From the IMG/VR virus record IMGVR_UViG_3300025320_000152, positions 1 through 64,000 of that record: 64,000 nt of DNA; one strand, 5' to 3'. The position numbers were made by a program, and so were the translations under genes. Shown here piece after piece: positions 3,391-41,088 of this stretch (position 1 is its first letter; every line of letters starts with the position of its first letter). This stretch comes from a virus (lineage: Duplodnaviria; Caudoviricetes). Under the pieces are notes generated by a model. That model searched no databases and was not told the origin of the DNA. It was given only the letters and a program-made list of their open reading frames with translations.

Positions 3391-3693
3391 TCAGGGCGAG
3401 GCTGCTTCGGCCGCTTCAATCAGGTCGGCGATAAGCCAGTCGAGCCGGCCGTCCTGCGCGTAGCGGAACTCGACCTCTGCGTGCTCGCAGGAGATCTTCG
3501 CCGTGAACCCAACCAGCTCGCAGGTACCGCAGTGCGCGAATCCCCCCTGGTTGGTGAGGTCGCGCACGGCGATGCTGGGGCAATGCAGGATGTGGCTCTG
3601 AGTGCTGTACGGCAGGTGGCTGAATTGCTCGGCGAACCGAGACAGGGTGAGCCGCTCCAGCAGCTCGTCCGCGCTCGGCTGGTCGCCGGTCAC
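3391..3693 (-). CDS. hypothetical protein (Cys-containing)
   Basis: ORF in a tightly packed operon; C/CxxC residues. Confidence 0.55.
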   Translation of the reverse strand: MTGDQPSADELLERLTLSRFAEQFSHLPYSTQSHILHCPSIAVRDLTNQGGFAHCGTCELVGFTAKISCEHAEVEFRYAQDGRLDWLIADLIEAAEAASP

Positions 3694-3965
3694 GCGTTAC
3701 TGCCGGAGATGTATTCCTCGATCATCTGGTTCAGCCGGGCGTTCGTGGCGTTGAGTACCTCGTTCTCGGACTCCAGGTGCATGGTGTCGAAGGCGCCCTT
3801 CAGGAAGTCGCCGTAGACCAGCGGCACGAGGAGGCAGCCGTAGACCAGGGCCAACAGCAGAGCAAGCCACATTTGCTGGAAGATGACCGCGATTATGAAG
3901 GTGCCTTCGAGGAAGAGCAGCACGATGACCACGTTCCTGCGCCAGTTGCGACGCAGCAGCGTCAC
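3690..3965 (-). CDS. small membrane protein
   Basis: two hydrophobic segments followed by a coiled-coil-like tail. Confidence 0.55.
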   Translation of the reverse strand: MTLLRRNWRRNVVIVLLFLEGTFIIAVIFQQMWLALLLALVYGCLLVPLVYGDFLKGAFDTMHLESENEVLNATNARLNQMIEEYISGSNA

Positions 3966-3981
3966 GAGTGACTCCCCCGCC

Positions 3982-4806
3982 TCAGCCGCGACTAAGCGGC
4001 TTGCTCGCGGGACGGTGCGCCATGGACTCGGCGCGCTTCGTCTGCGCCCTGGCCGCGTCCTCGCGGCGCTTCAGAGTACGCTCGTAGTCCTCGAACCTGG
4101 CCTTGGCGATGGTCCCGCGGTCGTCGCTGCGCAGGACAACGCCCTCCGCCCGGCCTCGCGCGCCCTCGTCCAGCGCGACGCGCGTCTTGGGGAGCAGCTC
4201 GTTGAGCCACACGTAGGTGTCCTCGACGGTGCCGGGCAGCTCGCCAGCCTCGACCATCCCGAGGCGCGGGGTGAGCTCGATACCCTCGACCTCGGCGGCG
4301 CGGTCCAGCACGTACTCGGTGGACCAGGCCTGGCCGCCATGCTCGCGCCAGAAGGCGATGCGCTCGCGCTCCCAGCCGAACACCTCCATCGGCACCCAGG
4401 CGAGATCGAACAGGCGGGCGCCGACGTTGCGCTCGCTGCTGTACTGCTTGGCGGCCGACGTGGTTCCACCAAAGACTTCCAGGAAGAATACAAGGGCCTT
4501 GTCGGAGCTCTGACCGTGCAGCGTCGCGGCGAGCGGGCGCAGCGCGTCAACGACGCCATCGGTCTTGGGGGCCACGCGGTCGCCACGGGCGGTAAGCAGC
4601 TCCTCGCGGCTACCGATGTACCAGTCGCCGTCCGGCATGAGGATGATGCGTGCGTTGACGCCGTTGATCTTCTCGGTCAGCAGGACGCGGCCCTCGAACT
4701 CGATGTGCTCCTCCAGCAGCCCACCCCGACCGTCGAGGGTGTGGTGGGTGGGGATGGACGGGTACTTGGTCGCGCTGTTGAGGCACGCCAGGTCGAGCTT
4801 GGTCAC
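3982..4806 (-). CDS. ATP-dependent RNA ligase family protein (Rnl2-like nucleotidyltransferase)
   Basis: KYPSI N-terminus, motif I TEKINGVNAR, LFD, EGVVLR and AKAR motifs. Confidence 0.75.
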   Translation of the reverse strand: MTKLDLACLNSATKYPSIPTHHTLDGRGGLLEEHIEFEGRVLLTEKINGVNARIILMPDGDWYIGSREELLTARGDRVAPKTDGVVDALRPLAATLHGQSSDKALVFFLEVFGGTTSAAKQYSSERNVGARLFDLAWVPMEVFGWERERIAFWREHGGQAWSTEYVLDRAAEVEGIELTPRLGMVEAGELPGTVEDTYVWLNELLPKTRVALDEGARGRAEGVVLRSDDRGTIAKARFEDYERTLKRREDAARAQTKRAESMAHRPASKPLSRG

Positions 4807-38916: not shown

Positions 38917-41088
38917 GTGGCCAGTGCGATCACGGGTACGCCGAATCTCTCGGCAAGCCCCACCAACTACTCCGGCAGCAACAGCATGCTGACGCCGGCG
39001 ATCCAGACCATCTGGTCCAAGGAAATCCTCAACGCCGTTCGGTAGGGGACCCCGTCGGGCGACCGGCGGGTAAACACCACGCTGTATCGGTGAACCCCTC
39101 TGCAGTTCGGCAGGGGAATACCGAGGGAACCTAGCGCCTAGGACTCCGTAGAGACTACACGCGAGGCATCTCCCATAGATTCGACCGCCAGGCGCTCACG
39201 CGGCCGAGACTGGAGATGAAGATATAGTCCGACCTGCACCGATAGTAAAGGTGCAGAGGCTGGCAGAAATGACCAGCCCCCGCCGATCGGCCGGGTAACA
39301 AAGTGCTTCCAGGCGATGCCGATCCTCAGGTTCGAGCAGTTCGCTGTCAAGAAGACCGAGCTCGGGGTAGCTCCCGGTCTCACCATCAACTTCATGCGGT
39401 CGATTCTCGGGCTCTCAGGTGCCCGTTGTGCCGCCTGACACGGTGACGTGTCAGTGAAAACCACGCTGTATCGGTGAACCCCACCGCTGCGCCACCGGGG
39501 AATACCGAGGCAACCCGTACCGGGGAGTCCGTAGAGACTACACGCGAGGCGCACTCCGATAGGACTGGAAGGCCGGTATAGCCGACCGGGACTGGAGTCG
39601 AAGATATAGTCCGATCTGCATCGATGGCAAAGATGCAGAGGCTGGCAGAAATGACCAGCCCGCTCCGGCCCTGTCCGGAGCGGTAACAGAAGTGACAACA
39701 ACCTGGGTGATGCGTCGCAGCTCGTCGAGGGCGTGCGCATGACCACCAACGCCCTCACGGCGTCGCAGTTCAGCATCACCGTGGCAGAGCAAGGCTACGC
39801 CGTGGCGGTCACCGAACTGCTGCTCAACGCCTCGTTCGACGACGTCATGGCGAGCGCCAGCCGGCTGCTCGGACGCAACATGGCGAAGTACCTCGACAAC
39901 CTGGCGCAGTCGACGCTGCTCCTGGCGACGTCGCTGATCTTCGGGTACTACAAGGACCCGGCCGCGTCGATCACGGCGAACTCGCCGTACGACCTGGGCA
40001 CGGTGGGAACCTCCACCAACACCCTGACGGGCGGGTACTACTTGACCCCGTCGGCGATCCGCGACATCGGGGAGAACCTCGCGACGCTCAACGTTCCGCG
40101 CATCGGTGAGACCTATGTGTGCTTCGTGCACCCTCACCAGTCGCGGCACCTGCGGGAGTCGCCCGAGTGGATCGAAGTCACCAAGTACGCAGCGCCCGGT
40201 CTGCAGCGAGACACCTTCGCACTGGCCGCCTGATCCAGCAATGGATCAGTGAAAAACCCGAGAATTGCTGGAACATCCTGTTAGACCTCAGCGCCACAGC
40301 GTGGGACGAAAGTCCGAGCGCGACGGCTTGAGAAGCTGAGGGTAGGGACAATCAGCAGCCGAGCCCGTCTGGACTAGCTCCGACGGGAAGGTTCACAGAC
40401 TATGTACGGGTCACCCCACGTGGGTGAAGATATAGTCGGAGCTGCATGGAGACATGCAGAGGCTAGCGGAAACGACTGGCCCCGCGTAGCAATACGTGAG
40501 TAACAAGACTGAACTTCATGCTTGGTGAGATCGGCCGGCTGTTCGACACGATTTTTATCGAGACGACGCAGGTTACGCAGCAGACGAACTCGGCAGCGCA
40601 GCAGGTTTACTCTGCGATCGCCATCGGAGACAACGCATTCGGGCACGCCATCAGCCTTCCCGTCGAGCTGAGGGACGGCGGGGTACTCGATTTCGGACGT
40701 GAGCATGCACTTGCCTATCGTAATGACTGGGCCCTCACGGCGTGAGCCGTGAGTGAAAATTCCGAGAATTGCTGGGAAGCCCGTACCACCTGACAGCACC
40801 ACAGCGTGAGTCGAAAGACTGAGCGCGACGGTTCGAGAAGCTGTCAGCAGGGGTTATCAGCAGCCGAGCCCGCCTGGACTAGCTCCGACGGGAAGGTTCA
40901 GAGACTATGTACGGAATACCTCAATAGATTGAGGTAAAGATATAGTCCGATCTGCGTTCGAGAGGCGCAGAGGCTGGCAGAAATGACCAGCCCACTCCGG
41001 ATGACCGGAGGGGTAACAGCGAGGGTACGCGATCTTGGGAATGGGACTGATCACCAACCAGTCCGTCATCGTCTGCCAGACCAACTGA
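38917..41088 (+). CDS. major capsid protein (HK97 fold, N4-gp56-like), spliced: join(38917..39029,39306..39400,39695..40200,40512..40716,41024..41088), 327 aa
   Basis: exons of 113+95+506+205+65 = 984 nt join in frame to MASAITG...WSKEIL|FQAMPILRFEQFAVKKTELG...NFMR|YNNL...KYAAPG|NFMLGEIG...DFGREHALA|WYAI...QTN*. Confidence 0.92.
39030..39305 (+). ncRNA. group I intron 1 (276 nt, no ORF)
   Basis: 5' exon ends in U, intron ends in G; IGS GGUAG-GGGA; P2 GNRA loop; P7 GACUA / UAGUC; GAAGAUAUAGUCC. Confidence 0.9.
39401..39694 (+). ncRNA. group I intron 2 (294 nt, no ORF)
   Basis: IGS GUUGU-GCCGC pairs with the 3' exon ACAAC and the 5' exon GCGGU (U-G); CGUAGAGACUA; GAAGAUAUAGUCC; terminal G. 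Confidence 0.92.
40201..40511 (+). ncRNA. group I intron 3 (311 nt, no ORF)
   Basis: GAAUUGCUGG / AUCAGCAG P4; GGUUCACAGACUA; GAAGAUAUAGUCG; P2 GCAA loop; U|...G| boundaries restore KYAAPG-NFMLGE. Confidence 0.9.
40717..41023 (+). ncRNA. group I intron 4 (307 nt, no ORF)
   Basis: GAAUUGCUGG / AUCAGCAG; GGUUCAGAGACUA; AAGAUAUAGUCC; IGS ACU-GGGC; U|...G| boundaries restore a Trp codon. Confidence 0.9.

Follow-up and report, generated by a model that had tools for sequence, protein, structure and literature searches.

A 27-mer recurring in the introns of a phage major capsid gene probably belongs to a conserved 3' domain of a large phage group I intron family

The window analyzed here is a stretch of 64,000 nt from an 82,930-nt IMG/VR provirus record, and the locus of interest within it is a major capsid gene interrupted by four insertions (Table 1). 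Mapping the capsid protein of Streptomyces phage Alone3 onto the window gave five capsid exons separated by insertions of 276, 294, 311 and 307 nt, with the exon bounds set by tblastn with the Alone3 protein and by the in-frame spliced CDS. Once joined, the exons form a 984-nt in-frame CDS of 327 codons (327 aa) that is collinear with the unbroken Alone3 capsid gene, and they share approximately 70% DNA identity with the unbroken major capsid genes of the Streptomyces phages Alone3, LuckySocke, pSt2308 and BRock. At all four junctions the upstream exon ends in T (U in the RNA) and the insertion ends in G, and none of the four insertions contains an ORF. Their cores are of two types, which we refer to as type A (introns 1 and 2) and type B (introns 3 and 4). 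The core motifs that an earlier, sequence-only reading of this DNA had quoted as common to introns 1 and 2, and the different ones quoted for introns 3 and 4, are all present.

Table 1. Coordinates of the capsid gene, its predicted introns and the elements of their 3' domains, numbered from the first letter of the window.
Feature	Coordinates	Strand	Remarks
Whole capsid gene including introns	38917-41088	+	exon mapping
Major capsid protein exon 1	38917..39029	+	GTG start, ends in T; tblastn with Alone3 and spliced CDS
Intron 1, predicted group I, type A core, 276 nt	39030..39305	+	capsid site aa 38; RF00028 31.5 bits
27-mer, intron 1	39253..39279	+	P9 3' strand 39253-39256, unpaired A, P9.1 hairpin 39258-39278
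P9.2 hairpin, GTAACA (39295-39300), 4-nt tail and terminal G, intron 1	39280..39305	+	consensus structure
Capsid exon 2	39306..39400	+	Alone3 mapping
Intron 2, predicted group I, type A core, 294 nt	39401..39694	+	capsid site aa 70; RF00028 26.5 bits
27-mer, intron 2	39635..39661	+	P9.1 hairpin 39640-39660
P9.2 hairpin, GTAACA (39683-39688), tail and terminal G, intron 2	39662..39694	+	consensus structure
Capsid exon 3	39695..40200	+	Alone3 mapping
Intron 3, predicted group I, type B core, P5abc-like extension, 311 nt	40201..40511	+	capsid site aa 238; RF00028 69.2 bits
Compensated 27-mer variant, intron 3	40456..40482	+	P9.1 hairpin 40461-40481
P9.2 hairpin, GTAACA (40500-40505), tail and terminal G, intron 3	40483..40511	+	consensus structure
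Capsid exon 4	40512..40716	+	Alone3 mapping
Intron 4, predicted group I, type B core, 307 nt	40717..41023	+	capsid site aa 307; RF00028 58.1 bits
27-mer, intron 4	40967..40993	+	P9.1 hairpin 40972-40992
P9.2 hairpin, GTAACA (41013-41018), tail and terminal G, intron 4	40994..41023	+	consensus structure
Capsid exon 5 with stop codon	41024..41088	+	Alone3 mapping

All four insertions matched the covariance model RF00028 over its full 253 positions. Introns 3 and 4 exceed the gathering score of 50 bits, while introns 1 and 2 remain below it (E = 1e-5 and 4e-4, respectively, in a local search), and two spliced relatives, the introns of phages BAKA and LittleE, reach 28.6 and 30.7 bits, which is about the same as introns 1 and 2. 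Judged by their core, the U/G junctions and the restoration of the reading frame, the four insertions qualify as group I introns, whose splicing in this gene is a prediction from sequence. A permissive Rfam scan of the window returned no further group I introns.

The 27-mer that had first drawn attention to these introns is indeed identical in introns 1, 2 and 4, with exact matches starting at 39253, 39635 and 40967; there is no other site in the window and none of 100 dinucleotide-preserving shuffles contained a match (0/100). The compensatory version claimed for intron 3 was likewise confirmed: here a G-C pair takes the place of the A-U pair that closes the GAAA loop, and two pairs of the outer stem are altered with pairing kept. 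In consensus structures built from 45 relatives of each core type, the 27-mer corresponds to the 4-nt 3' strand of P9, an unpaired A and then a 21-nt P9.1 hairpin, which is composed of a 6-bp outer stem, one bulged A, a 2-bp inner stem and a GAAA tetraloop. The 3' domain as a whole runs from P9 through a linker of one to two bases into P9.1, followed by a variable P9.2, GTAACA, four to five bases and the terminal G. A P9.1 with GAAA loop, bulged A and covarying outer stem follows P9 in 4/4 window introns, and all four continue through a variable P9.2 into GTAACA, a short tail and the terminal G, which bears out the shared intron ending described in the sequence-only reading. The type B consensus also has a P5abc-like extension with a GAAA loop. 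A relaxed pattern for the 3' module, run over the whole 82.9-kb record, retrieved no copies beyond the four in the capsid gene.

The P9.1 helix itself is shown by covariation. An alignment of 58 distinct 27-mer versions has the helix paired in 98.9% of cells compared to 76.5% in shuffles, with a covariation score of 0.643 as against 0.169 in shuffles and at most 0.095 in slid controls, and with changes on both sides in six of the eight pairs. The loop-closing pair is among those that covary, being either A-U or G-C. Twelve columns of the 27-mer are invariant across the 58 versions and four more are at least 90% conserved. Family-wide, about 17 of the 27 positions do not vary, and the remaining ten make up the covarying helix.

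This form of 3' end is widespread. A module pattern that left three outer stem pairs free matched more than 119 IMG/VR viral contigs among the matches listed, and after added scans of IMG/VR with motifs of the core only we obtained 213 distinct module-bearing introns with type A, type B and many other cores, on contigs ranging from AT-rich to GC-rich. The 5-bp outer stem occurs in 48 variants among these 213 introns and is paired in 1052 of 1065 cells; GCTGG/CCAGC, the version found in the window, is the commonest of them (39/213 overall, 29% of type B and 12% of type A). Samples retrieved by core motifs alone are unbiased for the 3' end, and in these a P9.1 of this form together with GTAACA is present in about 72 of 74 verified type A introns and in at least 39 of 63 type B introns, with P9.2, GTAACA, tail and G following in 52/53 type A and 39/39 type B module carriers. 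The type B introns without the module, most of them on AT-rich contigs, look like those of Xanthomonas phage RTH11 and Klebsiella phage DP. Searches of named phages were less productive: the 88-nt 3' domain gave no BLAST match at E up to 1, and two family members with other cores gave partial Staphylococcus phage matches or none. The sequence-only reading had taken the 27-mer as the trace of local events, an interpretation that it would have given up for a generic element of such introns. For the actinophage family the 27-mer is essentially that, given its presence on type A, type B and many other cores, on AT-rich and GC-rich contigs alike and with a covarying stem, and we conclude that it is largely a generic structural element in the 3' tail of a large phage group I intron family.

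Introns of this family are found in one capsid gene family, where they occupy 11 or more sites, and also in a portal gene, with up to four or five introns per gene. When capsid homologs were collected by protein, only four of the 80 closest contained any intron and 76, with which the spliced CDS of the window is collinear, were intron-less, and all fetched loci together comprise 44 intron-bearing homologs, with at least 11 sites at approximately aa 35, 38, 47, 52, 70, 90-99, 135-140, 231, 238, 252 and 300, in addition to aa 307. The P2 and P9.2 hairpins are strongly tied to the insertion site, and in these each window intron matches its site orthologs, which are found at L118, L274, L253, L277 and L083 for intron 1 (aa 38), at L158/L056 for intron 2 (aa 70) and at L289, with an identical 5' module, for intron 3 (aa 238).

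A single site can be occupied by either core type between nearly identical flanks. L049 and L238 both have an intron at capsid site aa 47, the former with a type B and the latter with a type A core; their 5' modules (guide region and P2) are identical at 31/33 positions and their 3' domains (P9.1 to GTAACA) at 42/44, whereas only 90 of 213 aligned columns match in P3-P9. Sites 52 and 231 are similarly occupied by type A in some phages and by type B in others. Comparing the variable 3' parts (outer stem and P9.2) in pairs of introns with core identity below 85%, we found at least 90% identity in 7/47 within-genome pairs as opposed to 30/12,322 between-genome pairs. Such sharing occurs in 5/23 genomes versus 0.11 expected (P about 1e-7, rising to 2e-4 when three related contigs are counted as one), and the excess among co-resident introns holds with the window and L013 removed. 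Individual pairs have sharp boundaries: two introns of L083 with cores approximately 80% identical differ wholly in P9, after which they agree at every position of the 55 nt that lead from P9.1 to the splice site, and the portal-gene and capsid-gene introns of L251 have identical P2 and 3' domains around a core of approximately 80% identity. The crossover on the 3' side lies at the start of the 27-mer region. Domain exchange and homogenization do occur in this intron family, and the conserved block is more likely to be a substrate for exchange than its product. The earlier claim of a 3' region homogenized across different cores is upheld at the level of the family; in the window, the 3' domain of intron 4 is closest to those of type B introns in other phages. 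Core type changes 22 times on the 3'-domain tree compared to 28-48 times with shuffled labels; the 3' domain is largely co-inherited with the core, as far as a 3'-domain tree of only 50 columns and low resolution can tell. The association of module and core is non-obligatory, because the module is missing from B-like cores of other phage groups. It may have passed between lineages in an ancient transfer, because the introns of RTH11, DP and the AT-rich contigs have a similar P3-P9 and another 3' end.

Together, we consider it likely that the 27-mer is part of the conserved 3' domain of a large family of compact, ORF-less phage introns, found mostly in high-GC actinophages, and that the four introns of the window are separate members of this family, not local copies. 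P9.1 would then act as a peripheral tertiary-contact element that docks on the folded core through its GAAA loop and bulged A, as general knowledge of such elements suggests, and this docking may help to place the 3' end in the active site, with GTAACA and the tail possibly leading the terminal G into the P7 pocket. By inspection, we found neither a partner complementary to GTAACA nor an 11-nt-type receptor for the GAAA loop. Purifying selection on the element would fix about 17 of its 27 positions, and the remaining ten would be helix, present here in its commonest version. Since purifying selection and the commonest version of the helix would suffice, three identical copies need no local event.

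A different origin, in which intron 2 descends from intron 1 and intron 4 from intron 3 through reverse splicing or ectopic recombination within this gene, might be suggested by the location of all four introns within 2 kb, by an 85-nt stretch common to introns 1 and 2 at 87% identity and by a 130-nt core repeat of introns 3 and 4 at 85%. However, core identity amounts to just 0.77 between introns 1 and 2 and 0.79 between introns 3 and 4, and in core trees none of the four has another of them as its nearest relative. Intron 4 is sister to the same-site intron at position 755 of L013 (L013b; 90% identity, support 98/97), and the core of intron 2 has its sister at position 227 of the same locus (L013a; support 93/90), with intron 2 also matching L074 at 85%. 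For intron 1 the closest relative is the L118 intron at the same site (79%), and the core of intron 3 is closest to introns of L083 (87%) and L008. The P2 and P9.2 modules likewise match same-site orthologs and not the neighboring intron. For intron 4, every part (5' module, core, P9 and 3' domain) finds its match in relatives that are either at the same site or of type B; it is not chimeric, because its 3' domain shares 96% identity with the one in a type B intron of L130, introns 1 and 2 being less close. Local duplicates should be each other's closest relatives, and this relationship is seen neither in the core trees nor in the identities nor in the site-linked P2 and P9.2 hairpins. The sequence-only reading had the introns spread within this gene by reverse splicing or recombination, but core trees and site mapping give every one of them a closer relative elsewhere. 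Each window intron is closer to an intron of another phage, usually at the same site, and the four are therefore not local duplicates; they appear from sequence to be separate, site-specific family members with orthologs at the same capsid sites in other phages. Local duplication is largely refuted, and we regard it as very improbable. It also seems improbable, though somewhat less so, that the loop block and GTAACA form the binding site of a shared host or phage protein splicing cofactor, which would explain conservation beyond pairing. In favor of such a cofactor, the sequence of the loop region, of the bulged A and of GTAACA does not vary even though hosts and base compositions differ greatly, which is more than the helix alone requires. 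Yet the loop-closing pair covaries between A-U and G-C, as expected for an RNA structural element, and the family includes both AT-rich and GC-rich phages, for which a common protein is unlikely. GNRA loops and bulged adenosines are, moreover, classic RNA-RNA contact elements of group I introns.

A further possibility, on top of the conservation seen throughout the family, is that short tracts were converted or recombined among introns residing in one genome, so that introns 1, 2 and 4 came to agree at the ten variable positions of the stem and perhaps also in the stem of P9.2. Such an event would not contradict our main explanation, as it would explain no more than the final step toward exact identity. 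The within-genome excess across the family and the sharp tract boundaries in L083 and L251 are in line with conversion, and in the window the variable 3' parts of introns 2 and 4 are 0.81 identical over cores at 0.59, which places them in the top 0.6% of between-genome A-B pairs, although this p of 0.006 is an uncorrected single-pair figure and six window pairs were compared. The stems of the orthologous pair of L013 also fit homogenization within each genome, with CCAGG/CCTGG in both of its introns and GCTGG/CCAGC in both of the window pair. Against our main explanation, the type A introns of the window bear a stem that is typical of type B and a minority version in type A, and most site-38 orthologs of intron 1 bear another version. 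Orthologs also differ from the window stem in the comparisons of intron 4 with L013b and of intron 2 with L013a and L158. On the other hand, stem-only concordance, a comparison superseded by the one over the full variable 3' part, was significant over all pairs (18/56 versus 6.6 expected) but non-significant for diverged cores without the window and L013 (4/28 versus 2.8 expected). Furthermore, introns 2 and 4 have different P9.2 loops, intron 3 is un-homogenized, and the site-70 ortholog L158 already has a B-like P9.2. Intron 4 and its ortholog also differ by compensated changes in P5b, which indicates that helices evolve fast without a donor. The window stem or a one-step neighbor of it is found in L178, L049, L025, L251 and L118; of these, L118, which is kin to intron 1 and one base away, and L025 and L251, which are kin to intron 2, already have the window stem or such a neighbor. 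Descent is therefore sufficient. The identical tract coincides with the conserved block. The gene conversion proposed in the sequence-only reading retains a modest signal for introns 2 and 4, which alone stand out, and none for the other pairs, which are ordinary apart from introns 1 and 4 at 5.8%. We rather doubt that local conversion contributed in this window, while considering it possible.

Returning to the four introns as separate members of a family with a conserved 3' domain, we suggest that the striking repeat reflects purifying selection on an RNA structural element and should not be taken as intron proliferation within the gene. The mosaicism seen at the level of the family is a more interesting lead than the sharing of the 27-mer. 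As a tentative proposal that we hold to be a serious possibility, the introns could be three-part mosaics of a site-anchored 5' adaptor (guide region and P2), an exchangeable P3-P9 cassette of type A or B and a 3' adaptor (P9.1, P9.2 and GTAACA), with crossovers in invariant blocks including the 27-mer region and the 3' match of introns 2 and 4 as one product. If this were true, ORF-less introns would swap cores at a fixed site and homogenize their adaptors among co-resident copies. Clear cases of exchanged core cassettes and homogenized 3' domains make the family a tractable system for studying the movement and recombination of introns that lack a homing endonuclease. The family is large, compact and mostly unannotated, its type A members falling below the Rfam gathering score, and the invariant P9.1 loop block together with GTAACA provides a simple signature with which to find and annotate such introns in phage genomes. 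That introns reside in actinophage structural genes, and the type A intron itself, were already known from Cluster J mycobacteriophages (PMC3706429). Our literature search found no description of the wider family, its type B members, multi-intron capsid genes of Streptomyces phages or module exchange.

Several known introns share part of this architecture. The intron of Xanthomonas phage RTH11, which lies by an RNA polymerase beta gene, and that of Klebsiella phage DP, located in a DNA polymerase gene, have a P3-P9 like type B, and the P9 hairpin of the former is identical to that of intron 3. Both differ from the window introns in their Gram-negative hosts and in having no P9.1, P9.2 or GTAACA after P9, and the DP intron carries an HNH gene whereas the window introns have no ORF. 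In Tetrahymena IC1-type introns, hairpins after P9 with GNRA-type loops serve as tertiary clamps. These introns resemble those of the window in their peripheral P9.1/P9.2 and P5abc elements, the type B extension being P5abc-like with a GAAA loop, but their sequences are unrelated. Several self-splicing group I introns in a single phage gene, as predicted here, also occur in Staphylococcus phage Twort, where orf142 contains three (cited in PMC3706429). The Twort introns are assigned to IA2 and have P7.1/P7.2, which are absent from the window consensus structures. The subgrouping of phage introns is unsettled, and both classification and Rfam coverage are incomplete (PMC11878797). The introns of the Cluster J mycobacteriophages BAKA, in a minor tail gene, and LittleE, in the capsid gene (Pope et al., 2013; PMC3706429), were shown by RT-PCR and N-terminal sequencing to be spliced in vivo, in work that does not describe type B introns (PMC3706429). 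Other hosts, other insertion sites and one intron per gene instead of four set them apart from the window, as does the HNH endonuclease gene that LittleE carries on the opposite strand inside its P9.2 region, the window introns being ORF-less. Nevertheless, their core motifs are those of type A, as in introns 1 and 2, and they lie in actinophage virion structural genes; like the window introns they have a P9 with a 9-nt loop, the same P9.1 loop block, compensated stems, P9.2, GTAACA, the tail and the terminal G. The mapped 3' splice site of BAKA falls after GTAACA, four bases and G (PMC3706429).

Intron occupancy of the capsid gene differs between the window and a related phage, of which the L251 and L013 segments listed in the table belong to one IMG/VR contig. 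In this phage the capsid gene carries at least three introns, at amino acid sites 35, 231 and 307, and site 307 is the only one shared with the window, which points to rapid turnover of intron occupancy among relatives. Its SPP1-type portal gene also contains two introns, one of type A and one of type B. Other capsid homologues (L129 and L083) hold four or more introns of the family within about 1.2-2 kb, showing that multi-intron capsid genes are recurrent. The P9.1 stems of the four L129 introns all differ from one another, and homogenisation of this region, which the sequence-only reading had proposed for the window, is thus not universal.

Coordinates of the introns, splice sites and comparison loci discussed here
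Feature	Position	Strand
Window type A introns	39030-39305; 39401-39694	
Window capsid 5' splice sites	39029; 39400; 40200; 40716	
Related phage, single contig	L251:2150-3200; L251:5200-5500; L013:1-820	
L129 multi-intron capsid locus	about 3400-4600, reverse-complement coordinates	minus
LittleE intron locus with HNH endonuclease gene	L002:1640-2220	opposite (HNH gene)

Depending on the phage, capsid sites 47, 52 and 231 are occupied by either a type A or a type B core (L049, L238, L131, L256, L013 and L083). At site 47 the type A and type B introns have near-identical 5' and 3' flanking modules, an arrangement equivalent to a core-cassette swap. When the 5' splice sites of the window and of the fetched capsid loci were inspected, GGT directly preceded the intron at about nine of 11 insertion sites and CCT at the remainder, and a conserved GGCCGCC-like element was visible immediately 5' of P2 in both intron types. 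Similar guide sequences may allow new GC-rich sites to be easily colonised.

In a few type A introns (L025 and L262) a longer hairpin bearing a GTGA loop takes the place of the usual P9.1; these retain a GNRA-type cap despite loss of the invariant block. In LittleE, an HNH endonuclease gene encoded on the other strand has been inserted at the P9.2 position of ORF-less relatives, with the P9.1 hairpin on one side of it and the terminal GTAACA tail on the other.

Finally, type A introns of the window and of the mycobacteriophages BAKA and LittleE (L001 and L002) score 26-32 bits against the Rfam group I model RF00028, far below its gathering score of 50, and the whole type A class is therefore missed by standard annotation; these low scorers include the BAKA and LittleE introns whose splicing has been demonstrated experimentally.
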